Assembly (NCBI RefSeq): GCF_003018115.1
Contig: NZ_CP027457.1
Reading direction: 5' to 3' (one strand)
Source: Escherichia coli
Lineage (GTDB): Bacteria; Pseudomonadota; Gammaproteobacteria; Enterobacterales; Enterobacteriaceae
Length of the DNA: 64,000 nt
Below, piece after piece: positions 4,213 to 37,341 of this stretch. The position numbers and the translations under genes are program-made. The notes under the pieces were generated by a model. It saw nothing but the letters and a program-made list of their open reading frames with translations, made no database searches and was not told the DNA's origin. Within the stretch, counting starts at the first letter, position 1, and each line of letters opens with the position of its first letter.

Positions 4213-4257
4213 TGAGTGGGTGTTGTGTTTAGGGCTGGGGAGAGTCGGGGAAGACTA

Positions 4258-4640
4258 CGAAAGCCCGCTCTCCTGCGACCACTTTTATCATAGGAGTGTG
4301 GAAGTGCTTTTCCATCAATCGCGATGACGTCTTTGTCATTTGATGAATGGCAGTCACGCATCCAGTTAATAAAGCACTCGTGAAATTTTGCAGGACTGAT
4401 ACAGGATACAACTCTGGCAATGGTATCGTGAACAGGAATACCATTTTCAAAATCACCATATTGCTTCAAAAAATCGAGATGTGTTTCCCCAAAATCCTCT
4501 ATATCTTCCCAACCTTCTGCACCAGAAATAACGGCACAAATAGTCAACAGTAGAATATCCGATAATTTATGTTCCACGTTCCAGGCTTGTCTGTAATCGG
4601 GGATAACAGAAATATGTTCCATCAATTTTTTAAGTTCCAT
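4258..4640 (-). pseudogene. Internally deleted ISAs1-family (H-repeat) transposase copy
   Basis: First ~115 codons are near-identical to the intact copy at 4686..5822 ([20 protein letters not shown]...), then the frame diverges; nucleotide comparison shows the 5' part joined directly to the last ~30 bp of the element. Confidence 0.8.
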
Positions 4641-4676
4641 TTTGTTCTCCTTAATTATGTAAGGAGTATTTGATCC

Positions 4677-5860
4677 AGGGCAAGATTACGAAAGCCCGCT
4701 CCCCGCAAGGACTGACGCCAGATAGTTTCTGTCCATGGCTGCTTTTCGCATCTTACGTCTTAACCCTGCCTTGAATACCTTATCATTCGTCAAAATATTA
4801 ATAGCAATGTGCCGTATCCCTGAAAATAATTCCGCTGCATTTCCTCTTCTTATTCTGCAGTCGTCTTCATTCATTACCACGTCCAGGCGCCAGTGCAGCT
4901 TATTTTCCACGTGCCAGTGATTTCGGTTCGCTGTGGCGAACTTCTCTGCAGTTAAATCAGCAGAGCTGATATAATATCTGACCGTCATTTCGGGTTCTTT
5001 CTTTTGTTCTGCTATTATTGACCGAAAGGAGACTGCCACGCATAATTTCTTCAGCCCTTTCCATTCAAACGTGAAATCAATAAGTTCATCAGGGACATCG
5101 CAAACAATATGAAGACGGATTTCTTCTCTGCCGTGACTCTTTTCACTGATTGCGTAACTGTCATGCTCTGGATTATTTAATTCTTTCAGCGGAAATTTTT
5201 CCTCAAAGGCTTTATTTAGCCGCCCCTGGTTTCCTTTTACCGCGAATAAATAATCACCTCCCTGTTTTTGTATCTTCTCTGCAATATCTTTCTGGCAACC
5301 CATCGCATCAGTTGTGATGATTTTTCCTTTAATATCCAGCATGTTAAGAAGTTCTGGGATAGCTGTAATCTCATTAGATTTCTCATCCGTCCTGATCTGT
5401 CCGATGACCAGACTGTGCATTGTTGAGAACGCACTAATGACATGAATCGCTCCCCTGCGGCGACTCTTGTCATAAGAGTGCCGGAGCGTTTTTCCATCAA
5501 TTGCAATGACGTCTTTATCATCTGAAGAATGGCAGTCACGCATCCAGTTAATAAAGCACTCGTGAAATTTTGCAGGACTGATACAGGATACAACTCTGGC
5601 AATGGTATCGTGAACAGGAATACCATTTTCAAAATCACCATATTGCTTCAAAAAATCGAGATGTGTTTCCCCAAAATCCTCTATATCTTCCCAACCCTCT
5701 GCACCAGAAATGACGGCACAAATAGTCAACAGTAGAATATCTGACAATTTATGTTCTACTTTCCAGGCTTGTCTGTAATCGGGGATAATAGAAATATGTT
5801 CCATCAGTTTTTTAAGTTCCATTTTGTTCTCCTTATTTATGCAAGGAGTATTTGATCATA
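4677..5860 (-). mobile_element. Intact H-repeat (H-rpt) element, ISAs1 family
   Basis: Ends inferred from the repeated terminal sequences shared with the truncated copy (gggcaagattacgaaagcccgc... at the 3' end; ccttatttatgcaaggagtatttgatc at the 5' end); abuts the truncated copy in tandem. Confidence 0.75.
4686..5822 (-). CDS. ISAs1-family transposase (H-repeat-associated protein, YhhI-like), 378 aa
   Basis: 378-aa ORF typical of Rhs-associated H-rpt proteins (conserved DAMGCQ and [14 protein letters not shown] segments). Confidence 0.88.
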
Positions 5861-6290
5861 TATAAGCTATGAAAAATAGTTTTAGGTAATAAGGAATATC
5901 TCAATTATTGAACATTTAGCGCGAATTATTTAGTACAAAAAGTGTACTTCTGATGACCTTTCCCTGCTCCAAAGTCTTCTAAAATCAACAATGTAGACTC
6001 TTAATTATATTTATCAACACAATAATCTATCCTATTACTATCTTGACAAGAGAGAACCGTTTTTTATTTAAATATATGATACACATCATTAAATATATAA
6101 CCATACTTTTTCATAAGGCAATCTAACTTAGCTCTTAAATCACCAAAACCCATCACACCATAACATCTAATAGCCATTGCCACACGTCACCATGGATTTA
6201 TTTCCACCTGCAATTACTTCGTCCTAACTTTAATTTAATCTCAAGAAGCATTAAGATCTCAATAGCGAGCTTAATACTTCTTGAATAATA

Positions 6291-6668
6291 TCACTCCTGA
6301 CCAAAATTTTTCCACACTAATGCATGAGACTTTGATTTGTCACCCAGAAATTTACTTACATCTTGCCAAAGTAAAGAATTGCTATCGGTCGCAGTGACTA
6401 TTGCCTCTATAAGCCCTGTAGCTACAACTGTGGCCAATTCATCATCAAGCGAGACCATACCATCTTCGACATGTTTAAATATTTTTTCTCTTTCAATATC
6501 CCCCATTTCATAAAAATTTTTTACAATCGTTTTTCCAACCTGAGAGAACAACATAACCACCGGTGGCGTTTCTGGATGCCAGTATTCATTAGCTAATGAG
6601 ACTGTCTCAGACAAAACAGTGGAAAATGATGCCATTTTTTCTATATAACTAGCAATATATTGGTTCAT
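6291..6668 (-). CDS. Candidate cognate immunity protein for the Rhs C-terminal toxin (cytoplasmic, 125 aa)
   Basis: Small ORF immediately downstream of rhs; its ATG overlaps the rhs stop (TAATG); no signal peptide; AT-rich like the toxin-encoding tail of rhs. Confidence 0.75.
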   Translation of the reverse strand: MNQYIASYIEKMASFSTVLSETVSLANEYWHPETPPVVMLFSQVGKTIVKNFYEMGDIEREKIFKHVEDGMVSLDDELATVVATGLIEAIVTATDSNSLLWQDVSKFLGDKSKSHALVWKNFGQE

Positions 6669-9600
6669 TACTTGCCTCCCAAAGCATTCTGTAAATCCTG
6701 AAGAACGTTTTCTGCTGCTGCTCGATCCCCTGGAGATGCTGTTGGATTCTTATCCAACCAATCCTGTAAAGCCCTTGTATAATCCTGTGCTTTCAATACA
6801 TGTCCTCTACCACCAACTTTTTCACCTGTGGCCAATTCATAACGAACAGCATCTGCTGTGCTTCCACTTCCTACTTTTGCATTTGGCCGATAAAGATCGT
6901 CTATAATATTTTTCAAATTTGAATCTGTAACGTCGGGTTTTCCCATTTTCTGTCGCAATTCATCTTTATACCGTTCATGCTGCATACGATCCCTTGCGCT
7001 ATTCTCATCTTCTGGTCCCCATCCTCCCGGGCTTCCCGTACTGCCGCCGGCCAGGCAGTTCTTCTCTTCATCCGTCAAATCCTTCCCAACATTCGGCTGA
7101 CTCCCTGACGAATTATCATTCTCATGTGGGCTATCTAAAGGACAACTACTGGTCCAGTAACACATTTCAGCCTGAGAATTTATTAACTGCCCATCGCTCA
7201 GAGCCTTCCCGGCACGCCCATCATTAGCGAGAAGGTCATATCCCATTGGCCCAGCGACCACAGCCATTGCTCCAAGAGCAGGGGCAGCAGACGCCATAGC
7301 CGCCGTGACTGCATCAAAAGTCGCCGCCCCACCCGAAAGTAACGCCCCCCCAAATTCTGTTCCTGTTACTGTTGTGGCAGAACCAAGAACCAGTGTCTCA
7401 CCAGACAACCCAAGAGGATCCCCCCGCTGCACCGGGTTCAGCGGATACGCATACAGGTTCCATCCCCCCTTCAGCCCAATGGGATCCTGGGTGATATAGC
7501 GTCCCTGCAACGGATCGTAGTACCGGTTCCGGTTATAGTACAGCCCCGACTCCTCATCATACTGCTGCCCCGGCAGACGGAGTGACTGTTGAAGGTGCTG
7601 CGCGCTGGTTTCGCCCAGCAGGTTTCCCCACTCGTCATACTCCCCCTGCCACGCCGTTTCCCCTTCCGGGCTGATGAGCGCCAGCGGCAGTCCCCGGTGG
7701 TCGCAGTGGTAAAGATGAAGTTTCCTCTCCGGGATGTATTCCGCCTCCAGCTGTGCGGCCATCTGCTCCGCCGTCAGCCCGCACTGCGCAAGCCATGCCT
7801 CACTCTCCGCACTCACCGCTCCCGCGCGCAGTTCCCGCTCCAGCCTCCCCAGCATCACCGACAGCTCCGCCGGTAGCGTCACACCCGTGTCCTCCTGCAA
7901 CACCTCCGCCAGGCTCCGGTGCCGCGCCTTCGCCTGTTCGCCATTCTCTGTTTCGATTCTCAGGAGCGGCGTGAAGCTCCCCGGCTGGTATACCGTCTGG
8001 ATACGCGTGGTGCCGGTCTGTATCGTCGTCAGCCTGTCACCGTCCCACCCGTACCATGTCACCTCCGGTTTACGCGACAGCGACATCCACCCCGTCAGGT
8101 CACGCTCCCGCCGCCATACCCGTTTTCCCGTCCGGCGGCCCAGCGGGTCATAGAGGTACCGGCTCTCCACCTGTGGTTCGCCGTGCTGTATCCGCGTGTA
8201 GAACACCAGGCGGTGCTGGCTGTCGTAGTGATAGTGGTGGGTGCGCTCGTCGTGCATCCGGATAACCCCTTCCGGGATACGGTCCGTCTTCTCCGCCAGC
8301 CTGCCGTATTCATCGTGGCGGTAGACATAGTGCGCATCCTCCGCGATGCGGTTATCCGGCCACGCCGTGAGCGTGCTGTCCGGGTGCAGTTCCGGGTCCG
8401 GCAGCCGGTTTCCTGCCGGGTCCGTCGCATACGGGATATCAATGTCCAGGTTCGCTGCCGTGGTGTGGACGCCCGTCAGCCTTCCCGTGCCGCTGTAACG
8501 GTACTCCCGGCTCTCCTGCGGGCCGCTGATGCGGATTAGCTGTCCGTTGTCGTTCCACGTATACTCACGGTCAAGCTGCGGAAGGTTCAGGTGCCTGCTC
8601 CGGAGCTGGCCGCTGGTATTCCAGGCGGTGGCAAGTTCATATGCCTCCCCGCCGAAGCTGCGGGCCGTCTCACGGTGCAGCCGGTCCCGCGTGTACTCGA
8701 CCAGCGGCGTTCCGCCCAGCTTCATCCCCGCAAGATAACCGCTGCCATACGTCAGCCACTCCACCGGCGGCAGACCGTCCGGCTCCTGACGGGTCGCCAG
8801 CCCCTGTTCGCTGTACGCATGCCCCGTCTCATGCTCCCACAGCATCTCCCCCGTCTCCGGGTTCTCCACCGTCTGCCGTTCGCCCGTCAGGCGGCCTTTA
8901 TCGTCATAGCCGTAGTGGACCGACACGCGGTGGCCTTCACTGGTATGGCTGAGGGTGGTTAACCACCCGTGCTCATCATACTGCCACTGCTCTGCCGGGT
9001 CGCCGTTCACCGTCCGGTGCGTGATGCGGTCCGACGCATCGTAGTGCCAGAGGGTGATAAGCCCCTCGTCTTCACTCTGCGTGAGTTTTCCGGTCAGGTC
9101 ATAGTGGTAACGTTGCGTCCGGCCGTCAAAACCGCGCTGTTCAGTCAGCCTGTCCACCGGGTCATACCGGAACGTGGACTGGCTGCCGTTCTCGTTGGTC
9201 AGCACGGTGATGCGCCCGGCAGCGTCATACCCCATGCTGCGCGTAAGACCGCCTTCCGTCACACTCACCGGACGCCCGTGTTTATCATATTCGATGGTGC
9301 TGCGTTTACCGTCCGGTGATATCGTTGCTGTCAGGTCGCCTGCGGCGCTGTACTCATAACGGATTTCACGCCCCTGCGCATCCTTCTGACTGACCAGTTG
9401 CCCACGCGGGTTATAACTGCTGTAAGTGCTGATGCCTTCCTCCCGGTGAACGGCGATTTGTTGACCGTACCAGTCATACTCATACCGCGTCGTGTACCCC
9501 GAGCAGTCCGTGAAGGCCCGAAGCTGACCGTACCGGTTTCGCGTTATTCTCCGCGTCACCCCGGTTCCGTCTTCCACCGCGCCGGGCAGGCTACTGCGGG

Positions 9601-11173
9601 GGGAGTCATAAAACCAGCGCGTAATGTTACCGTTGCGCGAGGTCTCTTCTGCCAGTCGGCCCTGACGGTCATATTTCCGGTTGCTGCGTAAACCATCCGG
9701 ATATGTCACTGAAGTCAGTTGCAACTGGCTGTTGTAACCATACCGTACCGTCCTGCCGTCCGGCAGTATCACTGAAGTCAGCTTTCCAGACGCCATATGC
9801 AGCCGGTACTCCGTCCGCCGCCCCGCCGCATCCGTCTGCGCCTTCAGCCTCCCCGCCTCATCATACTCGCTGCGGGTGATGCTCCCGTCCGCATGTTCCT
9901 TCTTCACCACACGCTTCAGGCCACCTTCGCCCTCCGTGTACAGCACCTCCCGCCGGTTCAGGCTGTCCGTGATGGTCACACGGTCCTGCCCGTACTCAAA
10001 GCGGTAGTCCAGCCCCTCCGGGTTGACCTGTTCTGTCACCCGACCGGTATCATCATACCGGTAGCGGCTCTCCGGCCTCCCTGCATAATGGTGCGCCACC
10101 ATCCGCCCGGCGTGCTGCACATCATAAGTAAACCCGCGCACCTGCGTCCCGCTGCGGTCATACACCGCCCGCAGTTCTCCGCTGGCCGTGTACGTGTAGC
10201 GCGCCAGCGGCGCAGTCGGCTGTTCATCCGGGTATGCCGGGTCGTGTGTCAGCCACACCGCCTCCAGCCGGATACCGTTATCGGCACCGTACTCTGTACC
10301 GGCGGGCAGCGTGTCGGGGAAAGCTGAAGAAAAGGAAGAAGAGGAAACAGAACGGGGACTGGCCGGGGAAGATAAGGAAGACTCGCGCTGTTTACGGAAG
10401 GCTTCCGCCCGCTGCGCCTGTGTGGTCAGCGCCAGGTGAAAACGGCGGCCCGCGCCGTCCGTCACCCCCGTCACCGCGCCCGCCACGTCACCCTCCGCCG
10501 CCCTGTGAAAGGCCAGCGTCCGACCAAAGCCATCCACCACGCCCGTCAGCACCCGGTATGCGGGCGGCTCCGGCGGCAGCACCTCGTCCGCCTCCGGCAC
10601 CCGCTCCGGCCAGCTGAGCACCAGCCACTGCCCGGTTGTGCTGACAGCCATCATATAGGTGTGTGGACTCAGACGGACCGCTTCCGGCAGCGCCCGCCAG
10701 AGCCGGGCCAGCGGGTGGCCTTTGTGTTGTTTCAGCACCCCACCCCTTGCCAGCCAGAGTGACTCGCTGCGGCTGTAGCTTATCTCGCCGGGAAACAGCG
10801 GCTCAAAGTGAATGCTCCTGCCGCCGTTGTCGTTGAGTATCAGTTCCCGCTCATGAATCTGTAAGCGGATATCAAAGGGGGCTTTCCAGCCGGGGCCAAA
10901 CACCCCCACCGGCGCGGGCGTCCTGGTCCGGTAACTGCTGTAGGCACGGGAAAGAATGAACGGCAGCGGGCCGGGCAGCGCAAGGTCCGTCTCGCCCGGC
11001 AGCACCTTCGCACCCAGTAGCGGGTTCACCGGGTTAGCATAGGTAATCCCTCCCGGACACACCGAGCAGGCCACTCCCGTCGGCGCACCTATCAGCACCC
11101 CCGCTGAACCCTGCACAATATCCAGTCCCTTGCGGGTCATATCACCCTGCCGCGCCGCCGGTTTTCCGCCCAT
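6668..11173 (-). CDS. rhs: PAAR-domain Rhs effector with variable C-terminal toxin domain (1501 aa)
   Basis: N-terminus [13 protein letters not shown]...[10 protein letters not shown] (PAAR-like); long YD/RHS repeat core; core-end motif [13 protein letters not shown] ~276 aa before the C-terminus; divergent, lower-GC C-terminal ~110 aa. Confidence 0.93.
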
Positions 11174-11248: not shown

Positions 11249-13390
11249 TCAAAATTGCCGCATATCCGGCATTCCGGGGGGTAAATCTTTCGGCACAGGC
11301 GCATCCGGTACAGGTTGTGTGGCACCACAGTTCCAGTTAATCACCGGCGCATCACCGTTCACATCCGACTCCCCTTCCAGATGAATGTGCGTACCATTAA
11401 GAAATATGCTTCCGTCCTTCGTCAGCACCAGCCTTGCCTTACCACAGCAGAGTTCAAGATGCTCACCGGCAGAATAAACTGCTGTTTGTCCGGTGTTTTC
11501 CTTCATCGTCTTGCCCACCGAGAAGGTGACGTTATTCCCTACATTGACGCTGTAGCCCATTCCCACCATCAGTGATTTATGCAGCCCTACCTGTGAGGAC
11601 TGCAACAACGCCACCGAGGTATTCATAATGCCGCCTACCGTCGTCTGATACGCCACACCCACCGTCAGCGCACGAATGATCCCCACCTTTTCAACCTGGT
11701 TTGATCCCACTTTGATAATCTGGTTACTGCCCACCGTTTCCACCTGGTTGACACCAACCGTCTGTATCTGATTAACGCCAATGTTCTGGATCTGGTTATT
11801 GGTAACGGTGATCGCCTGGTTGTTACCTATTTTTTCGGCATGGTTGTTTATCACATCAGTGGTGCGGTTATTCAGCACCTCGGTGTTCATGTTCTTCTGC
11901 GCGTGGATGTAGACCTGTTCTTTCCCTGTCGCATCGTCAAACTTCAGTTCATTAAACCCGCTGCCCTTATAGGTTTTCGAACGAATGGTCATCTGCGTCT
12001 TTGTTCCCGGCAGGCTGCCGGGTGTGCGGTTTTCCTGGTGGTAGGTGCGCCCCATAATGATCGGCTGGTCCGGATCGCCGTTGAGGAAGTCCACAATCAC
12101 CTCCTGACCCACACGCGGTATCGCCAGGTTACCAAACCCGGTGCCTGCCCACGCCTGTGCCACACGGATCCAGCATGAACTGTCCTGGTTTGACGGGTTA
12201 TAGCGGTCCCAGTTAAATTTCACCCGCACGCGACCATGTTCGTCGCAGAAGATTTCCTCGCCTGCCGGTCCCGTCACGACGGCGCTCTGCGGGCCATCCA
12301 CCAGCGGTTTCAGCAACGGCTGTGGTCGCCATGTTCTGTCTGCCGGTATTACCGCAAAATGGTTATCCAGCGTGGTGCCTGAACCCCTGCGTCCCGGTAC
12401 CGCCTGCGGCTGTTCGCCGTGAAGATCGCTCGCCACCACCTGCCATTCCCGGTTCAGGTTCGCCTGCGGATGCCCCGTCAGCACAATTCGCCGTCCCGGC
12501 CATATCTCCGGCGAACGGCTTGTTCCGCGCGCCACTTCTGCGTTGTTTCGCCAGCCATCCATCTGCCAGCGGGCAAAGTTCTGCCCGTGGGCACCCTTGA
12601 AACGTCCGGGGTAGTCATACACTTCATACTGTGTGCGCTGGTAATCCTGGTACTGGCCTTCCTGATCAAAACGCCCTGCCCAGCCGGGTCGTTTAAAGGT
12701 GTAGTCTTTGGTCACCACGGAAGAAGGGCGGATTTGTGCGCTGTAGCGAAACTGGCTGATGCAGAGGGTGCTTACCTCGGTACGGGTGTTCGGATTCCAG
12801 GGGATCTCAAAGGACTCCGGCAGATAACGCACGGTATCGCACAGGACCAGGCTCTGGTCGGTACTTTTTTGCGCGTGCTCCTCATAAAAGAAGATGCCTT
12901 CCTCCGCCGCCATCCGGCACAGGAAATCGTAATCAGTCTCACCGTACTGGACACAAAACTCACGGGAAGGATGCGGTTCACTGAACAGCGGACTCCACTC
13001 GGTCACCCCGTTTTCCTGCAATATCGTGCCGAGGATGCTTTTGATGTCCTCGTTCTGGAAGATACGGAAGTTCTGGCGCAGCCCTGTGCGCCACAGCGGC
13101 GGGCATACCTTCATGCTGTACAGCTTCTGGTTTTTGTCGTTCTCCCCCAGTTCAAACCAGGTCACCACACCTTTCACCCGGCGCTGTACGTCATCGCCCT
13201 GCCATATCGTCAGGTAGGCCATTTTGTCGAGGATCTGCTGGAATTCAAGGGAGAGAAACTGCTGGCTGACCAGAGAGAGAGCGAGGGAAAAAAGCGAAGA
13301 GAGTGACTGGTTCAGATGAAAGGAGACCACCGCAAAAGCATCCGGTGGCAGGCCGTCCACTTCCAGCGTGAAACGTAATCCGGTTGACAT
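11249..13390 (-). CDS. vgrG: T6SS spike protein VgrG (713 aa)
   Basis: Typical VgrG N-terminus (MSTGLRFTLEVDGLPPDAFAVVSF), gp27/gp5-like core and repetitive beta-helix region (NNQ/VGxNQ repeats). Confidence 0.93.
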   Translation of the reverse strand: MSTGLRFTLEVDGLPPDAFAVVSFHLNQSLSSLFSLALSLVSQQFLSLEFQQILDKMAYLTIWQGDDVQRRVKGVVTWFELGENDKNQKLYSMKVCPPLWRTGLRQNFRIFQNEDIKSILGTILQENGVTEWSPLFSEPHPSREFCVQYGETDYDFLCRMAAEEGIFFYEEHAQKSTDQSLVLCDTVRYLPESFEIPWNPNTRTEVSTLCISQFRYSAQIRPSSVVTKDYTFKRPGWAGRFDQEGQYQDYQRTQYEVYDYPGRFKGAHGQNFARWQMDGWRNNAEVARGTSRSPEIWPGRRIVLTGHPQANLNREWQVVASDLHGEQPQAVPGRRGSGTTLDNHFAVIPADRTWRPQPLLKPLVDGPQSAVVTGPAGEEIFCDEHGRVRVKFNWDRYNPSNQDSSCWIRVAQAWAGTGFGNLAIPRVGQEVIVDFLNGDPDQPIIMGRTYHQENRTPGSLPGTKTQMTIRSKTYKGSGFNELKFDDATGKEQVYIHAQKNMNTEVLNNRTTDVINNHAEKIGNNQAITVTNNQIQNIGVNQIQTVGVNQVETVGSNQIIKVGSNQVEKVGIIRALTVGVAYQTTVGGIMNTSVALLQSSQVGLHKSLMVGMGYSVNVGNNVTFSVGKTMKENTGQTAVYSAGEHLELCCGKARLVLTKDGSIFLNGTHIHLEGESDVNGDAPVINWNCGATQPVPDAPVPKDLPPGMPDMRQF

Positions 13391-13599: not shown

Positions 13600-14118
13600 T
13601 TATGCTTCCAGCGGTGCGCGCCAGTCGTCGGCACCGGAGGTGCCAGATTTGACGTGTTCCCATTCAATTTTGCGGTAGGCCAGTGAAACTTCGAGCAACT
13701 GGGTGAACTCGCGTTTCGCCGGGTCCTGGCAATGCGGCATATGCAGTTTCATATCGACAATCGTCGAATCAGTCAGGCGGGTAGTGAAATAATGCTCCTG
13801 TTTGCCTTCCACAGAGGTACGCCACCAGTGAAGTTCAGTGGTTGGCAGCATTTCGCCGGAGGCCAGTGCGTTGTACATCAGCGGAACCGCTTTGTTCAGC
13901 GCCACGGTAAAAATGAAAGGCTTGTGAGCACGCTGACCCGCAGGCTGACCGGACTGAGGATCGGTCGGGACAGTAACGTTATGCAGGAATTCCTGCACCA
14001 GCATCTCGTCTTCGTGCCCCTGCACATAGATGTTGCCGACAGAATCAGCGGTAAATGCACCTGCAGTAATATTTCCCTGGGTCTGACCAGTGATGGAGAT
14101 ATAACACGGTGTTGGCAT
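13600..14118 (-). CDS. hcp: T6SS inner-tube protein Hcp (172 aa)
   Basis: 172-aa ORF with an Hcp-like N-terminus (MPTPCYISITGQTQGNITAGAF...); size and position upstream of vgrG. Confidence 0.93.
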   Translation of the reverse strand: MPTPCYISITGQTQGNITAGAFTADSVGNIYVQGHEDEMLVQEFLHNVTVPTDPQSGQPAGQRAHKPFIFTVALNKAVPLMYNALASGEMLPTTELHWWRTSVEGKQEHYFTTRLTDSTIVDMKLHMPHCQDPAKREFTQLLEVSLAYRKIEWEHVKSGTSGADDWRAPLEA

Positions 14119-14815: not shown

Positions 14816-15316
14816 ATGAGCAAAAAATTTGAAGGCAGCGTCGCGCCTCGCGAGCGTATTAATATATCGTATGTCCCAAAAACAGATGGCCAGACGGCTG
14901 AAGTGGAACTTCCGCTTAACATGCTCGTTGTCGGCGATACCGGAAATACGCAGGAAACATCCCCACTGGATGAACGTCAGGCAGTTTCCGTTAACAAGCA
15001 CAATTTCGGTGCAGTGATGGCTGAAGCAGCCATTGGCCTCAATTTTACCGTCCCTGCCACACTGAAGGGAAGCACAACGGACGATGAGCTGAATGTGGCG
15101 CTGAATATCAAGTCACTGGATGATTTTTCACCAGATAGCGTGGCCCGGCAGGTTCCGGAAGTGAATAAATTGCTGGAACTGCGTGAAGCACTGACTGCAC
15201 TGAAGGGGCCGATGGGTAACCTTCCGGCATTCCGTACCCAGCTCCAGGCATTGCTGGAAAATGAAGAGTCCCGCGAGCAGTTGCTCAAAGAAATCGGCCA
15301 GGTGAGCAATAAATAA
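14816..15316 (+). CDS. tssB: T6SS contractile sheath small subunit TssB (VipA)
   Basis: 166-aa ORF, first gene of the structural operon; TssB-like size and sequence. Confidence 0.9.
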   Translation: MSKKFEGSVAPRERINISYVPKTDGQTAEVELPLNMLVVGDTGNTQETSPLDERQAVSVNKHNFGAVMAEAAIGLNFTVPATLKGSTTDDELNVALNIKSLDDFSPDSVARQVPEVNKLLELREALTALKGPMGNLPAFRTQLQALLENEESREQLLKEIGQVSNK

Positions 15317-29302: not shown

Positions 29303-32300
29303 GTGTTCAGATTACCAACACCCCGACTACTCAGCGGACTCAAATCAGCCCTACGCCCGGCGATGCCCCGGTTTAAAGTCTCCGCTTTCTGGCTGCTGAT
29401 ACTGGCGTGGATTTTTCTGCTGGTATGGATCTGGTGGAAAGGCTCGACGTGGACGCTGTATGAAGAACAGTGGCTCAAACCACTGGCGAACCGCTGGCTG
29501 GCAACGGCGGCATGGGGGATTATCGCCCTGGTGTGGCTTACCGTCCGGGTGATGAAGCGCCTGCAACAACTTGAAAAAATGCAAAAGCAGCAGCGCGAGG
29601 AGGCCATTGATCCGCTCAGTGTGGAGCTGAACGCCCAGCAGCGTTACCTTGACCGCTGGCTGCTGCGCCTGCAACGCCATCTCGACAACCGCCGTTTCCT
29701 GTGGCAGTTGCCGTGGTATATGGTCATCGGCCCGGCGGGCAGTGGCAAAACGACACTGCTGGGCGAGGGGTTTCCGTCAGACATTATTTATGCCCCGGAA
29801 GGCGCGCGCGGCACAGAACAACGCCTGTACCTTACGCCCCATGTCGGTAAACAGGCGGTGATCTTTGATATCGACGGCACACTCTGCGCTCCCGCTGATG
29901 CGGATATCCTGCATCGCCGTCTGTGGGAACATGCCCTCGGCTGGCTGAAAGAAAAGCGCGCGCGCCAGCCGCTGAACGGGATTATTCTGACACTCGATTT
30001 ACCCGATCTGCTTACCGCAGACAAACGCCGCCGCGAGCATCTGTTACAGACGCTGCGCAGCCGCTTGCAGGATATACGCCAGCATCTTCACTGCCAGTTA
30101 CCGGTTTACGTGGTACTCACCCGGCTTGATTTATTGCAGGGTTTTGCCGCCCTGTTCCAGTCACTGAACAGACAGGATCGCGATGCGATTCTGGGCGTCA
30201 CGTTCACCCGCCGCGCCCATGAAAATGATGACTGGCGAACAGAGTTGAATGCTTTCTGGCAGACATGGGTGGATCGAATGAACCTAGCGTTGCCGGATCT
30301 GATGGTCGCTCAGACTCACACCCGCGCGTCTTTATTTAGTTTTTCCCGCCAGATGCAGGGAAGCCGTGAACCGCTGGTGTCACTGCTTGAGGGTCTACTT
30401 GATGGCGAAAATATGAACGTGATGCTGCGTGGTGTCTATCTCACCTCTTCGCTTCAGCGTGGACAGATGGATGATATATTCACCCAGTCTGCCGCCCGCC
30501 AGTACCGGCTGGGCAATAACCCACTGGCGTCCTGGCCTCTGGTGGACACCGCGCCTTATTTCACCCGCAGCTTGTTCCCGCAGGCATTACTCGCAGAGCC
30601 TAATCTGGCAACGGAGAGCCGCGCCTGGCTGATGCGTTCCCGTCGCCGCCTGACGGTTTTCTCTACCACAGGAGGCGTGGCGGCACTGCTGCTCATCACC
30701 GGCTGGCATCACTATTACAACGGTAACTATCAGTCCGGCATCACCGTGCTTAAGCAGGCCAAAGCCTTTATGGATGTGCCGCCTCCACAGGGGGAAGATG
30801 ACTACGGCAACCTGCAACTGCCGCTGCTGAACCCGGTACGCGATGCCACACTGGCCTATGGCGACTGGGGCGACCGCAGCCGTCTGGCCGATATGGGACT
30901 GTACCAGGGACGACGTATCGGGCCTTATGTGGAACAGACCTATCTGCAACTGCTGGAGCAACGTTACCTGCCCTCGCTGTTTAACGGGCTGGTTAAAGCG
31001 ATGAATGCCGCGCCGCCGGAGAGTGAAGAAAAACTCGCGGTGCTGCGCGTGATGCGAATGCTGGAGGACAAAAGCGGACGTAACAATGAGGTGGTGAAGC
31101 AGTATATGGCAAAACGCTGGAGCGAAAAGTTCCACGGCCAGCGCGATATCCAGGCACAACTGATGTCCCATCTTGACTACGCGCTGGCTCATACTGACTG
31201 GCACGCAGAGCGTCAGGCGGGCGACGGTGACGCCATCAGCCGCTGGACGCCATATGACAAGCCCGTGGTATCAGCACAGAAAGAACTGAGCAAACTGCCT
31301 GTCTACCAGCGGGTTTACCAGAGCCTGAAAACGCGGGCGCTGGGCGTTCTTCCTGCCGACCTCAATCTGCGTGACCAGGTAGGGCCAACCTTTGACCAGG
31401 TGTTTACATCTGCCGATGACAACAAACTGGTTGTTCCACAGTTTCTTACCCGTTACGGCCTGCAAAGCTATTTTGTAAAACAGCGCGATGAACTGGTTGA
31501 ACTGACGGCGATGGATTCCTGGGTACTTAACCTTACCCGCAGCGTGAAATACAGTGACGCCGACCGCGCGGAAATCCAGCGCCAGCTCACCGAGCAGTAT
31601 ATCAGCGACTACACCGCCACCTGGCGGGCCGGGATGGACAATCTGAATATCCGCAATTTTGAGTCCATCGGACAACTGACCGGGGCGCTGGAGCAGGTTA
31701 TCAGCGGCGACCAGCCTTTGCAGCGGGCGCTGACCGTGCTGCGTGACAACACACAGCCAGGCGTCTTTTCTGAAAAACTCTCTGCCAAAGAACGGGATGA
31801 GGCCCTGGCAGAGCCGGACTACCAGTTACTCACCCGTCTCGGGCATGAGTTCGCCCCGGAAAACAGTACCCTGGCAGTACAGAAAGACAAAGAAAGCACG
31901 ATGCAGGCAGTATATCAGCAACTCACCGAGTTGCACCGCTACCTGCTGGCAATCCAGAACGCGCCTGTACCAGGGAAATCGGCGCTGAAAGCCGTGCAGT
32001 TACGGCTTGATCAGAACAGCAGCGATCCGATATTCGCCACCCGCCAGATGGCAAAAACGCTGCCTGCTCCGCTCAACCGCTGGGTTGGCAGGCTGGCTGA
32101 CCAGGCCTGGCATGTGGTGATGGTGGAGGCCGTTCACTATATGGAAGTGGACTGGCGCGACAGCGTGGTGAAACCGTTTAACGAGCAACTGGCAAATAAC
32201 TATCCGTTTAATCCGCGTTCTGCACAGGATGCCTCACTGGATGCCTTCGAACGCTTCTTTAAACCGGATGGCATACTGGATACCTTCTACCAGCAGAACC

Positions 32301-32827
32301 TGAAGCTGTTTATCGATAATGACCTGAGTCTGGAGGATGGCGATAACAGCGTCATTATTCGCGAAGATATTATTGCGCAACTGGAAACTGCGCAGAAAAT
32401 CCGTGACATCTTCTTCAGCAAACAGAACGGTCTGGGAACATCCTTTGCCGTGGAAACGGTATCGCTTTCAGGCAATAAACGCCGCAGTGTACTGAACCTT
32501 GACGGTCAGTTAGTCGATTACAGCCAGGGCCGTAACTATACCGCCCATCTGGTCTGGCCTAACAACATGCGCGAAGGCAACGAAAGTAAGCTGACGCTCA
32601 TCGGCACCAGCGGCAACGCGCCGCGCAGTATCAGCTTCAGCGGGCCGTGGGCGCAGTTCCGCCTGTTCGGGGCCGGACAACTGACCGGAGTACAGGATGG
32701 CAACTTTACCGTGCGCTTTAGCGTGGACGGTGGCGCGATGACCTACCGTGTGCATACCGACACGGAAGATAACCCGTTCAGCGGTGGGTTGTTCAGCCAG
32801 TTTGGTCTGTCAGACACACTGTACTGA
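29303..32827 (+). CDS. tssM: T6SS membrane-complex protein TssM (IcmF, VasK); start at GTG 29303 or ATG 29363
   Basis: ~1170 aa; N-terminal transmembrane helices; Walker A GPAGSGKTTL. Confidence 0.92.
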   Translation: MFRLPTPRLLSGLKSALRPAMPRFKVSAFWLLILAWIFLLVWIWWKGSTWTLYEEQWLKPLANRWLATAAWGIIALVWLTVRVMKRLQQLEKMQKQQREEAIDPLSVELNAQQRYLDRWLLRLQRHLDNRRFLWQLPWYMVIGPAGSGKTTLLGEGFPSDIIYAPEGARGTEQRLYLTPHVGKQAVIFDIDGTLCAPADADILHRRLWEHALGWLKEKRARQPLNGIILTLDLPDLLTADKRRREHLLQTLRSRLQDIRQHLHCQLPVYVVLTRLDLLQGFAALFQSLNRQDRDAILGVTFTRRAHENDDWRTELNAFWQTWVDRMNLALPDLMVAQTHTRASLFSFSRQMQGSREPLVSLLEGLLDGENMNVMLRGVYLTSSLQRGQMDDIFTQSAARQYRLGNNPLASWPLVDTAPYFTRSLFPQALLAEPNLATESRAWLMRSRRRLTVFSTTGGVAALLLITGWHHYYNGNYQSGITVLKQAKAFMDVPPPQGEDDYGNLQLPLLNPVRDATLAYGDWGDRSRLADMGLYQGRRIGPYVEQTYLQLLEQRYLPSLFNGLVKAMNAAPPESEEKLAVLRVMRMLEDKSGRNNEVVKQYMAKRWSEKFHGQRDIQAQLMSHLDYALAHTDWHAERQAGDGDAISRWTPYDKPVVSAQKELSKLPVYQRVYQSLKTRALGVLPADLNLRDQVGPTFDQVFTSADDNKLVVPQFLTRYGLQSYFVKQRDELVELTAMDSWVLNLTRSVKYSDADRAEIQRQLTEQYISDYTATWRAGMDNLNIRNFESIGQLTGALEQVISGDQPLQRALTVLRDNTQPGVFSEKLSAKERDEALAEPDYQLLTRLGHEFAPENSTLAVQKDKESTMQAVYQQLTELHRYLLAIQNAPVPGKSALKAVQLRLDQNSSDPIFATRQMAKTLPAPLNRWVGRLADQAWHVVMVEAVHYMEVDWRDSVVKPFNEQLANNYPFNPRSAQDASLDAFERFFKPDGILDTFYQQNLKLFIDNDLSLEDGDNSVIIREDIIAQLETAQKIRDIFFSKQNGLGTSFAVETVSLSGNKRRSVLNLDGQLVDYSQGRNYTAHLVWPNNMREGNESKLTLIGTSGNAPRSISFSGPWAQFRLFGAGQLTGVQDGNFTVRFSVDGGAMTYRVHTDTEDNPFSGGLFSQFGLSDTLY

Positions 32828-32837: not shown

Positions 32838-34187
32838 ATGAATAGTAACGTACTGACACAAACTATCGTTACCGGCAGTGACCCGCGCGGGCTGCCGGAA
32901 TTCAGCGCCATCCGCGAGGAAATAAACAAAGCCAGCCACCCGTCACAGCCTGAGCTGAACTGGAAACTGGTGGAGTCGCTGGCGCTGGCGATTTTTAAAG
33001 CCAACGGTGTGGATTTACACACCGCCACCTACTATACGCTTGCCCGGACACGGACACAGGGACTGGCGGGATTCTGCGAAGGTGCGGAACTGCTGGCGGC
33101 AATGGTAAGCCACGACTGGGATAAGTTCTGGCCGCAGGGCGGCCCGGCGCGTACTGAAATGCTGGACTGGTTTAACTCCCGAACCGGCAATATTCTGCGT
33201 CAGCAAATCTCCTTTGCGGAATCTGATCTGCCGCTGATCTACCGCACAGAGCGGGCATTGCAGCTTATCTGCGACAAGCTTCAGCAGGTAGAGCTGAAGC
33301 GCGTTCCGCGCGTGGAGAATCTGCTCTATTTTATGCAGAACACGCGTAAACGGCTTGAACCCCAGCTGAAGAGTAACACTGAGAACGCCGCACAGACCAC
33401 GGTCAGAACGCTGATTTATGCCCCGGAAACACAGCCATCTTCCACACCAGAAGCGGTAGTGCCTCCCCTGCCCGGCCTGCCTGAGATGAAAGTGGAAGTG
33501 CGCAGTCTGACAGAGAATCCCCCACAGGCCAGTGTGATAAAGCAAGGCAGTACGGTAAGAGGGTTTATCGCAGGGATCGCCTGTTCAGTGGCTGTCGCCT
33601 CAGCATTGTGGTGGTGGCAGGTCTATCCGGTGCAGCAGCAACTGTTACAGGTTAACGACACCGCTCAGGGCGCAGCAACGGTGTGGATGGCCTCACCTGA
33701 ACTCGAAAACTATGAGCGCAGGCTGCAACAACTTCTTGATACCTCCCCGGTACAGCCGCTGGAAACCGGGATGCAGATGATGCGTGTTGCCGACAGTCGC
33801 TGGCCGGAAAGCCTGCAACAGCAACAGGCCTCGACACAATGGAATGAGGCACTCAAAACCCGCGCACAGAATAGCCCGCAGTTGCGTGGCTGGTTGCAGA
33901 CCCGCCAGGACTTACATGCTTTTGCAGATCTAGTGATGCAGCGCGAGAAAGAGGGACTCACCCTTTCCTATATCAAAAATGTCATCTGGCAGGCGGAGCG
34001 GGGACTGGGGCAGGAAACACCCGTTGAGTCTCTGTTGACGCAGTACCAGGATGCCCGTGCGCAGAAGCAGAATACAGATGCGCTGGAAAAACAAATTAAT
34101 GAGCGACTCGAAGGCGTGTTAAGCCGCTGGCTGCTGCTGAATAATAATACGATACCGACGATAAAAAAAGGCATTGAATTTCAATAA
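32838..34187 (+). CDS. ImpA-N domain T6SS accessory protein (VasL-like)
   Basis: ORF 32748..34187; start taken at MNSNVLTQTI (32838, GGAGG upstream); N-terminal region resembles TssA/ImpA_N; internal hydrophobic helix (IAGIACSVAVASALWWW). Confidence 0.65.
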   Translation: MNSNVLTQTIVTGSDPRGLPEFSAIREEINKASHPSQPELNWKLVESLALAIFKANGVDLHTATYYTLARTRTQGLAGFCEGAELLAAMVSHDWDKFWPQGGPARTEMLDWFNSRTGNILRQQISFAESDLPLIYRTERALQLICDKLQQVELKRVPRVENLLYFMQNTRKRLEPQLKSNTENAAQTTVRTLIYAPETQPSSTPEAVVPPLPGLPEMKVEVRSLTENPPQASVIKQGSTVRGFIAGIACSVAVASALWWWQVYPVQQQLLQVNDTAQGAATVWMASPELENYERRLQQLLDTSPVQPLETGMQMMRVADSRWPESLQQQQASTQWNEALKTRAQNSPQLRGWLQTRQDLHAFADLVMQREKEGLTLSYIKNVIWQAERGLGQETPVESLLTQYQDARAQKQNTDALEKQINERLEGVLSRWLLLNNNTIPTIKKGIEFQ

Positions 34188-34213
34188 CATTCATGAATAC
34201 AAAGGAGTTTTAA

Positions 34214-34693
34214 ATGGCGAATTTAATTTATTTAACACTAAATGGTGATAATCAAGGGCTCATTTCAAGTGGTTGTTCATCACAACCATCCATTGGAAAT
34301 AAAGCTCAAACAGCACACATTGATCAAATTATGATTTATGAATTCATGCATGGATTAAATCGAGATCAAAACGTCAACCATCATCATTTGACAATAAAAA
34401 AACCTATAGATAAAGCATCACCCTTATTAGGCAAAGCAATTTGCGACAATGAATTATTGACATGTGATTTTTCCTTTTATCGTACAAATAAATTTGGAAT
34501 TAATGAACTGTACTATAAAATCAAATTAACTGGAGCAAAGATAAGCGACATTCATGTCTCTATATCACATATTGTTGTTGATAACAGCGTTCAACCCGAA
34601 GAGTCAGTTTCTTTCAGTTATGAGTCAATTATATGGGAGCATTGTTCCGCTGGCACTAGTGCATACAGTTTATGGGAAGATCGTCTTTTTTAA
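34214..34693 (+). CDS. Divergent Hcp paralog (159 aa) in the AT-rich terminal module
   Basis: Aligns with the cluster Hcp in several blocks (YLTLNGDNQGLISSG vs YISITGQTQGNITAG; SVSFSYESIIWEHCSAGTSAYSLWED vs EVSLAYRKIEWEHVKSGTSGADDW). Confidence 0.8.
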   Translation: MANLIYLTLNGDNQGLISSGCSSQPSIGNKAQTAHIDQIMIYEFMHGLNRDQNVNHHHLTIKKPIDKASPLLGKAICDNELLTCDFSFYRTNKFGINELYYKIKLTGAKISDIHVSISHIVVDNSVQPEESVSFSYESIIWEHCSAGTSAYSLWEDRLF

Positions 34694-34713
34694 AAACATA
34701 TGGGATTATTATA

Positions 34714-35610
34714 ATGGCTAACAATATTTTACACTCTTCAACATCAGACAGTGAAAGCAAAAATACAAGCACTGACAGTACGTTATTTAATGAAAAATTC
34801 CCATTTCAACTAAGACAAGATTTCGCATCAAGAATAACAGAAGATGAAAGTGATTTTTTTAAATGGAAAAAAATAAGAGAGTTGGCATTTGTGAGCAATC
34901 ATAAAGAATGGAATAAATATGACTTATTAATTTTAAAATCTGTTAATGAAATCAACATTCATTTGTCCAGCACTCCATACTTTCAGCCGTTGGATTGGTA
35001 TATAATAAAAGCCATGCTCTGGACTGAAAACGATGCGAAAAATACTTCTCAGTGGAATGGTTATCCATTACAAATTGGTCGTTTTCGGAAAGATAAAGCG
35101 ATGCCAGCTTTAATCTCTGGAGAAAAATCTACAGCCCTTGTTACCCCACCACAATGGAGAAACAAAGCATTCAATGGGTTAAAAGATCCAGAAAGAAATT
35201 ACTGGGCAAAAGAACAAATAACTGGCTCTCCAGAAGAGAATATCAAAGCAGCAATTACTTACTTAATGATGAAACTTTCTAATACAAAGGAAGAATCAAC
35301 TATCGATCAATATGACTCAACTCTATATAGCGCCATTGTCCAAAAAGGCGATTTGGCTGACAACATCAGAAAAGAGAGAAAAACGACCATACCTAACTTA
35401 ACGAAAAACAATCCTGGAAAAAATCTCGATAAAATACACCCGGGAGATATTTTATATTATCAAAAAGCATCCATGAAAGTAATAATTACTGGATGGAAAC
35501 CTATCACAATAAAAAATGTAGCGATGAATTATAATGGTGGTGGCGATCCCAAGTATGCAATAAAACTTCAGTTCGTTTATACATTACTCACAAAAAACAG
35601 AGTATTATGA
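34714..35610 (+). CDS. Candidate Hcp-associated T6SS effector (298 aa, no Cys, no signal peptide), function unknown
   Basis: Follows the hcp paralog by 21 nt; start taken at MANNILHSS; its stop overlaps the start of the downstream signal-peptide protein (ATGA). Confidence 0.55.
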   Translation: MANNILHSSTSDSESKNTSTDSTLFNEKFPFQLRQDFASRITEDESDFFKWKKIRELAFVSNHKEWNKYDLLILKSVNEINIHLSSTPYFQPLDWYIIKAMLWTENDAKNTSQWNGYPLQIGRFRKDKAMPALISGEKSTALVTPPQWRNKAFNGLKDPERNYWAKEQITGSPEENIKAAITYLMMKLSNTKEESTIDQYDSTLYSAIVQKGDLADNIRKERKTTIPNLTKNNPGKNLDKIHPGDILYYQKASMKVIITGWKPITIKNVAMNYNGGGDPKYAIKLQFVYTLLTKNRVL

Positions 35611-36062
35611 GAATGCGAAAAATAACAATTATTCTATTGCTGACATTCTCATGTACAAAAGGTCTGGCATTTGACATTTCCATGTCTAAAGAATGTAGTG
35701 GTGTTGATGAACTTGAATTTATTGATTGTGTTAAAAACTCATTTATTATGAGCACTATTACACTTAAAAAAGCAGAAGCAAATATAAAAGAGAAAATTCA
35801 AAAATGGAATAGTGATGAGGACGAAGCAATAAGAAAAGAAGCAGTTATTTCTTTAAAAAGACTAGAGTCTTCTAATAGGGAATTTATACGTTACAGATTT
35901 GCTCAATGCTCTTTTACTCTAACCTGGGGGGCCAGAGTAGGGCGACTGGCATTCTCTCGGCTATATCCATGCTATACTGAGTTAAACAAAATAAGAGCCA
36001 TGCAACTAAACAATGCTTACATTTCTGACTTTCAAAATCCAGATGAGATATCCAGCAAATGA
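35607..36062 (+). CDS. Candidate periplasmic immunity protein 1 (151 aa)
   Basis: N-terminal signal peptide (MRMRKITIILLLTFSCTKGLA); 4 Cys in mature part; ATGA coupling to the upstream effector; pattern loosely reminiscent of DUF1311/LprI-like lysozyme-inhibitor proteins. Confidence 0.5.
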   Translation: MRMRKITIILLLTFSCTKGLAFDISMSKECSGVDELEFIDCVKNSFIMSTITLKKAEANIKEKIQKWNSDEDEAIRKEAVISLKRLESSNREFIRYRFAQCSFTLTWGARVGRLAFSRLYPCYTELNKIRAMQLNNAYISDFQNPDEISSK

Positions 36063-36415
36063 TTATTATAAATTTAAGATTAACATTACTATTTATACTG
36101 GCCACATTTACATATTCAGTACAATCAGACGAATTCGATGATCAAACCACTTACACGCAATACCGTTATTTTTCCACTGCTATACCGGAAGATATACGTA
36201 GATTTATGTTCTACGTAGATTATTGCTTTGTAGATTTAGCATTCGATATCGAAACTGACTCAATGACAGCTAAGAATGATATTATTAATGAATGTACTCC
36301 ATTAAAAGAAAGAAACAAGACATTAAAAGAAAAATATAAAAAAAATGAAGAGATAATAGCAATTCTTTCCATTGCAGATGATACTATTTTAATTTATGAA
36401 GAATTAAAAAAATAA
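36059..36415 (+). CDS. Candidate periplasmic immunity protein 2 or paralog (118 aa)
   Basis: Signal peptide (MIIINLRLTLLFILATFTYSVQS); ATGA overlap with the upstream gene; very AT-rich. Confidence 0.45.
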   Translation: MIIINLRLTLLFILATFTYSVQSDEFDDQTTYTQYRYFSTAIPEDIRRFMFYVDYCFVDLAFDIETDSMTAKNDIINECTPLKERNKTLKEKYKKNEEIIAILSIADDTILIYEELKK

Positions 36416-36540
36416 CTCACATGCAATACACTGGTAATATATATTATAACTTTATAAAAACAATCATATTTACATTATAAAAATACTCAACTCCTGTTTG
36501 CTGCCACCCTAAACTACAGGCGGCAGCATAACAATAACGA

Positions 36541-37341
36541 TTACTGGAATCGACTCACCAAGTCTTTCACCATCGATACATATGTTTTTTGTTTCAAATT
36601 AAACAGTTGCGCTTCCGTAACATGGTCATTTGATAGTTCTTTATTGCTCGTTTTTGTTATTCCAGCCGGCGGAAAAATTACTCTCGATTCATAATTCACC
36701 GGCGACCAGGTAGCCCACTCACCTGTTGCCACATCCACCAGCGTGAAACGTACCAGGTAGCGCAGGGAGATAGCGTCAGTGAGTTTTTCATTTTTATAGT
36801 CGGACCATACTGTTGATTTCAGCGCAGAGTCATATTTTCCTGTCTGCAACATATCCTGGTAAACAATAATCGCTTTCTGATGTCCTTTTGCAGCCACAAA
36901 ACGCAGTGCCTGCATCCAGTTCATATTCTCAGCACGGGCAACATCCTCGTTCTCATTTTTATCTTTGTTTTTGTTACAAGTCAGAGGCTTTTGCCTGTCC
37001 GGGATACCAGAGAATGTGGAAACAGTATAATATTTTCGCATCTCCTCCTGCATAATGGTTTCCGGTGCGCGGTTGCCGGATTGAACAAGTATTACAGGAG
37101 AATTAAGGGGAACGCGGAACTCATCTCCATCAAGCGCTGCTTGAATATCCTCTTCGGATACGGCCAGAGTGGTTTCATTACCGAATAAATCTTTGTCTGT
37201 CAGTTGCTGGGGAGTGTTTTTATTCATATTACTTTGTGTGACTTGAGCTTTTTTCTTCTTTTCATCAATAGAAGATTCAGAGGCACATCCTGCAAGCAGC
37301 GAGAATAACACACATATGCAACAAAGCTTTTTTGAATTCAT
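36541..37341 (-). CDS. yafT: Lipoprotein YafT
   Basis: 266-aa ORF with lipobox LLAGC; adjacent to aspV as in K-12. Confidence 0.85.

Follow-up and report, generated by a model that had tools for sequence, protein, structure and literature searches.

What occupies the interval between yafV and yafT/aspV in this Escherichia coli chromosome, is the machinery encoded there intact, and does any part of it extend what has already been described? These questions were addressed in a 64,000-nt stretch of contig NZ_CP027457.1 (RefSeq assembly GCF_003018115.1), referred to in its entirety as the window, in which an initial annotation made from the sequence alone had recognised a type VI secretion system (T6SS) island. 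The island is very probably an intact chromosomal E. coli T6SS-2, Vas-like in organisation, lacking vasH, equipped with two toxin/antidote cargo modules and probably silenced by H-NS.

Gene organisation and rhs genes define T6SS-2 (PMC10711316). The island in the window has the yafV-yafT/aspV position, the FHA/VasI/VasL gene order, an rhs gene downstream of vgrG and high identity. Its 20-kb core is 99.3% identical to that of NCTC9112, the best complete-genome match, and alignment against other aspV islands, which the initial annotation had proposed as a check, gave 98.7% identity to O157:H7, while K-12 lacks the ∼32.4 kb of the island. The same yafV-yafT/aspV position is occupied in NCTC9112, O157:H7 and MRSN346355. 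Coverage of the core reaches at least 80% in 2028 of the 5426 complete E. coli genomes, 3652 of which match at least partly. The earlier statement that the machine is known at aspV in pathogenic E. coli holds for enterohaemorrhagic E. coli (EHEC) (PMC5363993), but the distribution over 2028 genomes indicates that it is not restricted to pathogens.

Core gene set and its integrity

As initially annotated, all 13 core components, TssA to TssM, are present, and each is full length, the complement of a canonical T6SSi. Genes were called with NCBIfam equivalog models, all matches exceeding the curated cut-offs and aligning to nearly the whole profile. Besides the 13 core proteins, the island encodes TagH, VasI and a VasL/TagA-like protein. 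The rightward arm comprises the following features.

14816-15316, plus strand: tssB, sheath small subunit (TIGR03358, 171 bits)
15351-15575, plus strand: 74-aa conserved hypothetical open reading frame (ORF) between tssB and tssC, WP_000123970.1 in other T6SS-2 strains
15626-17101, plus strand: tssC, sheath large subunit, 491 aa (TIGR03355, 703 bits, profile 2-473/473)
17108-17521, plus strand: tssE, baseplate (TIGR03357, whole profile)
17525-19375, plus strand: tssF, baseplate (TIGR03359, whole profile)
19339-20421, plus strand: tssG, baseplate (TIGR03347, whole profile)
20446-21726, plus strand: tagH, FHA-domain accessory protein (TIGR03354, 343 bits)
21723-22247, plus strand: tssJ (TIGR03352), with tssK and tssL one of the membrane complex and baseplate genes
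22250-23581, plus strand: tssK (TIGR03353), of the same group
23586-24347, plus strand: tssL (TIGR03349), of the same group
24356-27127, plus strand: clpV/tssH ATPase, 923 aa (TIGR03345, 1124 bits)
27124-27867, plus strand: vasI (TIGR03360, 259 bits)
27872-29284, plus strand: tssA (TIGR03362, 502 bits)
29363-32827, plus strand: tssM (TIGR03348, 940 bits, profile 2-1167/1168)
32838-34187, plus strand: vasL/TagA-like accessory protein, 449 aa, with a TssA-type N-domain (TIGR03362 partial, N-terminus only)

The large T6SS cluster of Vibrio cholerae has the order vipA/B-vasA...vasL, with vgrG-3/tsiV3 downstream. The window shares with it the order tssB-tssC-tssE-tssF-tssG-fha-tssJ-tssK-tssL-clpV-...-vasI-tssA-tssM-vasL, and the VasI and VasL families are present; however, clpV and vasI overlap by 4 nt with no ORF between them and vasH, the sigma-54 activator, is therefore absent, while hcp and vgrG are located in a divergent arm with an Rhs effector. 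The vas order claimed for the listed genes is thus correct, whereas the full V. cholerae arrangement is not reproduced. Among the island ORFs screened, all of which are otherwise accounted for, no ppkA/pppA kinase/phosphatase gene was detected. VasL orthologues carry the Pfam domains ImpA_N and VasL. For tssM, the longest ORF begins at a GTG at 29303 and the ATG at 29363 yields MPRFKVSAFW. The 74-aa ORF shares 34% identity with aa 50-102 of the adjacent TssC (BLASTP, E 2e-8), a resemblance to the TssC N-terminal region which suggests a probable relic, left by duplication or recombination of the 5' end of tssC.

No frameshift or premature stop is observed in any core gene. The Prokaryotic Genome Annotation Pipeline (PGAP) labels vasL as 'frameshifted' in the near-identical strains F9792 and NCTC9112, a reading that was rejected: the difference is a 1-nt indel, a single G at window 34170, which alters only the last ∼6 residues.

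The O157:H7 cluster is degenerate with respect to its O55:H7 ancestor, the lesions having been listed in a 2026 study: tssC is truncated by a nonsense codon, a 28-bp unit is duplicated in tandem where tssM begins (5' end), clpV has a 12-bp deletion and the effector gene etse4ori is split by the change of a TTA codon to TAA (PMC12981562). At all four sites the window has the ancestral state. The O157 tssC annotation is shorter than the 491-aa tssC of the window; the 28-bp unit in tssM is present once, at 29394, compared with twice in O157:H7; ClpV retains ESESESE, the stretch affected by the 12-bp deletion; and codon 74 of etse4ori (34933-34935) is TTA.

The divergent arm and the Rhs C-terminal toxin

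The divergent hcp-vgrG-rhs-immunity operon of the initial annotation is found on the minus strand, identified by NCBIfam matches and by the 125-aa ORF abutting rhs. This arm, ending in two insertion sequence copies, is made up as follows.

13600-14118, minus strand: hcp (TIGR03344, 207 bits)
11249-13390, minus strand: vgrG spike (TssI), 713 aa (TIGR03361, 627 bits, profile 1-512/513)
6668-11173, minus strand: Rhs effector, 1501 aa (NCBIfam RHS_core, 2513 bits, profile 1-1261)
6291-6668, minus strand: putative Rhs immunity protein, 125 aa, its start abutting the rhs stop
4686-5822, minus strand: full-length ISAs1/ISEc1 transposase, the H-repeat protein (NCBIfam NF033564, 414 bits, profile 1-314/314)
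4274-4640, minus strand: internally deleted ISAs1 (H-repeat) copy (NCBIfam transpos_ISAs1, residues 29-124 only)

A 14-pair hairpin and then a T run lie after hcp (13600-14118), and O157:H7, NCTC9112 and MRSN346355 share, at the level of annotation, a single Hcp, WP_001142958.1, at this position.

Rhs contains DUF6531 and RHS (YD) repeats according to Pfam. The YD-repeat shell occupies aa 1-1256, with Rhs_assc_core at aa 1179-1256 and the core ending at DPLGL (aa 1252-1256), and is followed by a variable C-terminus of 245 aa (aa 1257-1501, nt 6668-7405). A YD shell, a DPxGL end, a variable C-terminus and then a small immunity gene together constitute the architecture of a polymorphic toxin. 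The Rhs C-terminus and immunity region is covered to at least 80% in 129 complete genomes; the core shell is ubiquitous.

The conserved toxin domain corresponds to the last ∼85 aa of Rhs (nt ∼6671-6925). No Pfam match was found for the Rhs C-terminal region. Relatives of the domain are Rhs and 'filamentous hemagglutinin' (CdiA) fragments from E. coli, Salmonella, Lelliottia, Yersinia, Vibrio, Gilliamella, Neisseria and metagenomes, in which G43, A50, E54 and H66 are invariant, Y36, R37, S46, T47, R52 and K69 are nearly invariant and the family consensus ends in ..GG..HxQKA. The AlphaFold2 model of the domain is all-helical with a predicted local distance difference test score (pLDDT) of 91; Foldseek yielded no credible match among PDB folds (best E 1.2), nor did a profile search of PDB sequences yield a match. 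HEPN, Fic, ART and Ntox15 identities, considered on the basis of motifs, were rejected for lack of fit in either the motifs or the predicted all-helical fold, and Pfam gave no match.

The 125-aa immunity candidate matches Pfam DUF7674 weakly (E 0.024; this match and the LprI match given below, also weak, are from a Pfam scan of three small proteins concatenated) and has no signal peptide, on which basis it is predicted to be cytoplasmic. From the same lack of a signal peptide the Rhs toxin would be cytoplasm-acting and probably a nuclease; with low confidence, we suggest that its site of action is the cytoplasm of the target cell and its substrate most likely nucleic acid. On an unrelated contig, a homologue of the toxin domain is located in an orphan cdiA-CT array (CT, C-terminal) and is followed by a 124-aa gene with a weak DUF7674 match. 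Judged from sequence, the Rhs toxin/immunity pair recurs elsewhere as an orphan cdiA-CT/cdiI-like pair, and this conserved gene linkage in an orphan array of contact-dependent growth inhibition (CDI) backs the prediction of a toxic Rhs C-terminal domain that the product of the next gene neutralises.

The middle of the Rhs C-terminus, ∼100 aa, resembles the N-terminal/linker part of CdiA-CT NC101/3006 (phmmer E 2e-7), mostly in Gly/Ser-rich linker. The PtsG-dependent CDI entry domain has been defined as two helical subdomains with a conserved disulfide (PMC9424206). The similarity is real, mostly over linker, and a PtsG-type cytoplasm-entry domain in this segment is considered only as a lead. 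Compared with CdiA-CT/Rhs-CT modules (Poole et al. 2011; E. coli NC101/3006), the window has the same delivery part, DPxGL, variable C-terminus and immunity gene, but its toxin domain is unrelated to the BECR tRNases of CdiA-CT NC101/3006 and has no detectable known fold.

The ∼85-aa tip is the sole unexplored part of the island. We suggest, tentatively, that it may represent an uncharacterised antibacterial toxin family with a new all-helical fold, exchanged between Rhs and CdiA proteins across Enterobacteria, Vibrio, Neisseria, Gilliamella and others and paired with DUF7674-type cytoplasmic immunity, whose activity could be new rather than that of a diverged nuclease. The initial annotation had located the value of the island in its specific effector content and regulation; the second effector pair, described below, has already been characterised (PMC12981562).

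ISAs1/H-repeat proteins are typical of Rhs element ends. The two ISAs1 copies are arranged in tandem, the inner copy intact and the outer copy consisting of the first ∼122 codons and the last ∼18 bp (4256-4273, 4687-4704); the 3' end of the intact transposase, at 4687-4964, is matched by K-12 yafF. The outer copy forms the left edge of the island with respect to K-12 and is called 'ISAs1 partial' by PGAP in F9792, and because it is internally deleted, ORF 4113-4640 runs into the end of yafV. Strain TUM13936 matches the entire left arm from end to end at 97.3%, and the organisation is therefore not peculiar to this island.

The tail module: a second Hcp with Etse4 and Etsi4

A second Hcp module, also noted in the initial annotation, is present from 34214-34693 onward (TIGR03344).

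34214-34693, plus strand: second hcp, 159 aa (TIGR03344, 198 bits)
34714-35610, plus strand: etse4ori, unsplit, 298 aa, the effector
35607-36062, plus strand: etsi4, DUF1311/LprI-like periplasmic immunity protein with a signal peptide
36059-36415, plus strand: 118-aa secreted protein, role unassigned, with a signal-peptide-like N-terminus

The tail (34188-36540) is low in GC (32%) and is carried by 364 complete genomes, most of which belong to the O157:H7/O55:H7 lineage. It is 99.8% identical to O157:H7 strains, and the DNA of F9792 is 100% identical over 34188-36700. PGAP annotates the same proteins in O157:H7 and F9792, WP_000964776.1 (the 198-aa part) and WP_001302684.1 (the DUF1311 protein), and the only relevant difference in etse4 between the window and O157:H7 is TTA versus TAA at codon 74. 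At this degree of identity, the second-Hcp module is recognised as the published Etse4/Etsi4 effector/immunity pair. Periplasmic Etse4 causes toxicity from which Etsi4 rescues; the effector was characterised in 2026 and described only as 'LysM-like' (PMC12981562). We infer that loading of Etse4 depends on the neighbouring Hcp, perhaps through the disordered N-terminal ∼45 residues of the effector.

Pfam returned nothing significant for the 298/312-aa effector. The Etse4 family comprises 361 representatives at 50% clustering, and LysM is detected by Pfam in 52 of 72 members. Glu105 is invariant in the 72 sequences and lies within LWTE(S)G, in keeping with the E-S motif at a helix end that marks the catalytic Glu of GH23/SLT enzymes, and the consensus LWTESG...PMQIG...NIRAGIAYL...YNGGGD has the pattern of family-1 lytic transglycosylases; Glu105 is predicted to be catalytic in Etse4ori. 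The AlphaFold2 model of Etse4ori is confident (pLDDT 87) and has a lysozyme-like alpha-helical fold, as in the GH23/SLT superfamily, suggesting a GH23/lytic-transglycosylase-like fold with a LysM domain inserted in the catalytic domain. Etse4ori itself has no match to Pfam SLT (PF01464) and for this reason is likened to an SLT/lysozyme-fold enzyme, not filed as a member of the sequence family. The best reading of Etse4ori is a periplasm-acting, peptidoglycan glycosidase-like effector, whose chemistry may be that of a muramidase or of a lytic transglycosylase. Compared with Tse3 (Tge1) of Pseudomonas aeruginosa, Tge2 of P. protegens and the GH23 enzymes MltF, Slt70 and MltE, Etse4 lacks significant sequence similarity and differs in the insertion of LysM inside the catalytic domain; in contrast to Tse3 and Tge2, its immunity protein is LprI/DUF1311-like, not Tsi3/Tgi-like.

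Etsi4 matches Pfam LprI/DUF1311 (PF07007) weakly (E 0.035), and PGAP assigns the same protein to the DUF1311/LprI family. Distant Etse4 homologues (∼40% identity), in Salmonella and other bacteria, occur in the setting tssM, vasL, hcp, effector, LprI-like gene and ∼120-aa gene, the LprI-like genes again giving a weak LprI match. The ∼120-aa gene of these modules from other taxa holds the position of the 118-aa protein, for which no family match was found and which is possibly a second immunity or accessory protein. A PADLOC search of four small island proteins returned nothing.

Two further observations concern this module. Some O157 records leave the 118-aa ORF unannotated. An eCIS_core domain (PF13699, E 5e-31) is found in one Etse4-family member, and the Etse4-type glycosidase module may also be used by extracellular contractile injection systems.

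Borders of the island and its variation between strains

Relative to K-12, the window is collinear in reverse orientation with a shared flanking gene set, listed here with the tRNA gene detected by ARAGORN and Rfam.

253-2775: fadE, left flank
2818-3291, minus strand: ivy, left flank
3436-4212: yafV, left flank
36541-37341, minus strand: yafT lipoprotein gene, right flank
37669-37745, minus strand: aspV, tRNA-Asp, the landmark beside the island

Past aspV, the right flank continues through dnaQ, rnhA, yafS, gloB and mltD to the rrnH operon. In blastn of the K-12 interval against the window, homology is lost at window 4273 and 36687, and the DNA extra to K-12 spans 4274-36686, ∼32.4 kb, between yafV and yafT/aspV. 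Accessory DNA had been placed at 4213-37341, which is the same interval with yafT added. GC content changes along the island in a mosaic fashion, from 32-38% in the tails to 56% in the core and 64% in the rhs core, and an Rfam scan found no RNA family within it.

The right break (36687) falls within the 3' end of yafT. The final ∼146 nt of yafT (36541-36686) are without homology to K-12 yafT. Because this 3' end is not K-12-like, the border of the variable tail lies inside the yafT coding sequence, and the C-termini of YafT are therefore strain-specific.

Strain-to-strain differences are located in the two end modules. The T6SS-2 islands of lineages such as MRSN346355, ST410-A (ST, sequence type) and UMN026 share with the window both flanks and the architecture of the hcp-vgrG-rhs-ISAs1 arm, at a core identity of 98.5%; compared with most T6SS-2 strains, homology ends at approximately window 34147, the tail in those strains consisting of Hcp, a 304-aa protein and YkfM. 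The O157:H7 island, in contrast, has the same locus, gene order and tail module (Hcp1, Etse4, Etsi4) as the window, with core DNA 98.7% identical. It differs in that the window retains intact, ancestral tssC, tssM, clpV and etse4, in the Rhs C-terminus and immunity gene, O157 having an ankyrin-repeat immunity gene and extra orphan rhs fragments, and in the ISAs1 pair of the window, one copy intact and one internally deleted.

The yafV-yafT interval of K-12 contains only ykfM and the pseudogenes yafU and yafF, in agreement with the small remnant genes given for K-12 in the initial annotation. K-12 (238257-239378) matches MRSN346355 at 99.94% to a point inside the 304-aa tail gene, and the match resumes inside the ISAs1 transposase gene with a 5-bp junction overlap and ∼30 kb missing. 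On this alignment, K-12 is identified as an exact deletion derivative of an MRSN346355-type T6SS-2 island, with ykfM-yafU-yafF as the scar. As a result of the ∼30-kb deletion, yafU is the 3' remnant of the 304-aa, Hcp-linked alternative tail effector gene and yafF the 3' end of the ISAs1 transposase gene, while ykfM, the neighbour of the 304-aa gene, is immunity-like and probably an orphan immunity gene.

Two side observations were made in the right flank. Approximately 197 bp at the yafD/yafE junction (window 42735-42930) are missing from K-12, where other strains annotate a 256-aa methyltransferase compared with the 207-aa YafE of K-12; K-12 yafE appears to be 5'-truncated. A copy of naRNA4, a nucleoid-associated RNA derived from repetitive extragenic palindromic (REP) sequence, was found by Rfam at 58750-58826 (minus strand) in the core-genome flank, is unrelated to the island and has a 90%-identical copy elsewhere in F9792.

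Regulation and proposed mode of action

The two arms diverge from a single AT-rich region.

14119-14815: hcp-tssB divergent promoter region, 33% GC, likely H-NS target

In a promoter/terminator consensus scan of the hcp-tssB region nothing exceeded shuffled expectation, except for the hairpin after hcp. EHEC EDL933 possesses a 37-kb aspV-associated island that is H-NS-repressed, forms ClpV foci, secretes Hcp and exports the KatN catalase (PMC5363993), and Hcp secretion is reported for homologous EHEC and atypical enteropathogenic E. coli islands (PMC5363993, PMC12981562). By analogy, the T6SS of the strain in the window would presumably be active, and is probably silenced by H-NS via the AT-rich hcp-tssB region as in EHEC, a mode of control which the 33% GC of this region fits.

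In the proposed mechanism, TssJ-L-M would form the envelope-spanning complex and TssE-F-G-K the baseplate, on which TssA, with the VasL/TagA-like protein, would prime and cap polymerisation of the Hcp tube inside the TssB-C sheath. VgrG would tip the Hcp tube, sheath contraction would fire tube, spike and attached toxins into a neighbour cell and ClpV would recycle the sheath after firing. As the first cargo, the PAAR-motif Rhs would ride on VgrG, its YD shell enclosing the ∼245-aa C-terminus that ends in the ∼85-aa helical toxin, which the 125-aa cytoplasmic protein encoded directly downstream is predicted to neutralise. The second cargo would employ its dedicated Hcp together with Etse4, which is proposed to cut peptidoglycan in the target periplasm and to be inhibited by Etsi4, of the LprI/DUF1311 type.

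Discussion

The assignment as an intact T6SS-2 with two antibacterial cargo modules has to be weighed against observations that count against it. With respect to cargo, a literal PAAR motif is found at Rhs aa 5-8, and such proteins are named PAAR-Rhs in the literature, yet there is no match to Pfam PAAR_motif and the island contains no separate PAAR gene. The activity of the Rhs toxin receives no assignment from Pfam or PDB, and Pfam SLT (PF01464) is matched by 0 of 72 Etse4-family members at E<=0.001 and 8 of 72 at E<=0.1, with a best E of 2.6e-3. With respect to function, the EHEC system stays silent in laboratory media as long as hns is present (PMC5363993). F9792 (NZ_CP024273), the closest complete genome, whose flanks share at least 99.96% identity with the window, lacks the 24 kb from rhs to tssM (window 7536-31515); the deletion joins the C-terminal parts of rhs and tssM, with a 9-bp overlap at the junction. 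This deletion parallels the fixed 21-kb rhsG-tssM deletion of ST410-B, and such losses are common (PMC10711316). Because losses of the island are common, selection for function is not universal.

An alternative is that the system serves mainly in host interaction, through KatN acting against phagocyte reactive oxygen species (ROS) or effects of Hcp on host cells, not in interbacterial killing. The homologous EHEC T6SS secretes KatN and aids macrophage survival (PMC5363993), and restoring the T6SS lowers ROS-driven induction of the Stx phage (PMC12981562). However, the island does not contain katN, and each of its two cargo modules is a classic antibacterial toxin/immunity pair, one a peptidoglycan hydrolase and its immunity protein, both periplasmic, the other an Rhs C-terminal toxin and its cytoplasmic immunity protein; a predominantly host-directed role is considered unlikely here, although host-interaction and interbacterial roles are not mutually exclusive.

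More improbable still is that the island is a decaying relic which looks complete but is functionally dead or being lost, as in several other E. coli strains. The inactivating or attenuating mutations of O157:H7, the 24-kb rhs-tssM deletion of F9792, the 21 kb lost between rhsG and tssM in ST410-B, the exact 30-kb deletion that gave rise to K-12 and core coverage below 80% in 1624 of the 3652 genomes with a match would all be accommodated by decay. In the window, in contrast, every core ORF is full length against its profile, the four known degenerative sites are all ancestral and both effector genes and their immunity genes are intact.

A classical mobile island integrated site-specifically at aspV was rejected as highly improbable, despite adjoining aspV, having mosaic GC (core 56%, tails 32-38%, rhs core 64%) and the naming of an aspV-associated pathogenicity island by Wan et al. 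(PMC5363993), as no integrase was detected among the island ORFs screened (all T6SS, effector/immunity or ISAs1), yafT and 327 bp lie between island and aspV, the sole other aspV-like sequence in the window is aspU with no aspV-derived repeat, and strain variation is explained by homologous replacement of end modules and deletions with 5-9 bp junction overlaps.

T6SS-2 at aspV is already described and is functional and H-NS-repressed in EHEC, and as a secretion system the island adds nothing new. Decay of T6SS-2 has been documented in O157:H7, ST410 and ST131, and against this background the window provides an undamaged ancestral example that could serve as a reference for what O157:H7 has lost, including the unsplit etse4ori. 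Assigning a fold to Etse4 provides this recently reported effector with a catalytic mechanism that can be tested, a modest refinement of the 2026 report, and the K-12 genes ykfM, yafU and yafF are explained as the scar of a T6SS deletion. The tip of Rhs is a widespread toxin domain without a known fold or activity, and constitutes a reasonable target for toxin discovery.

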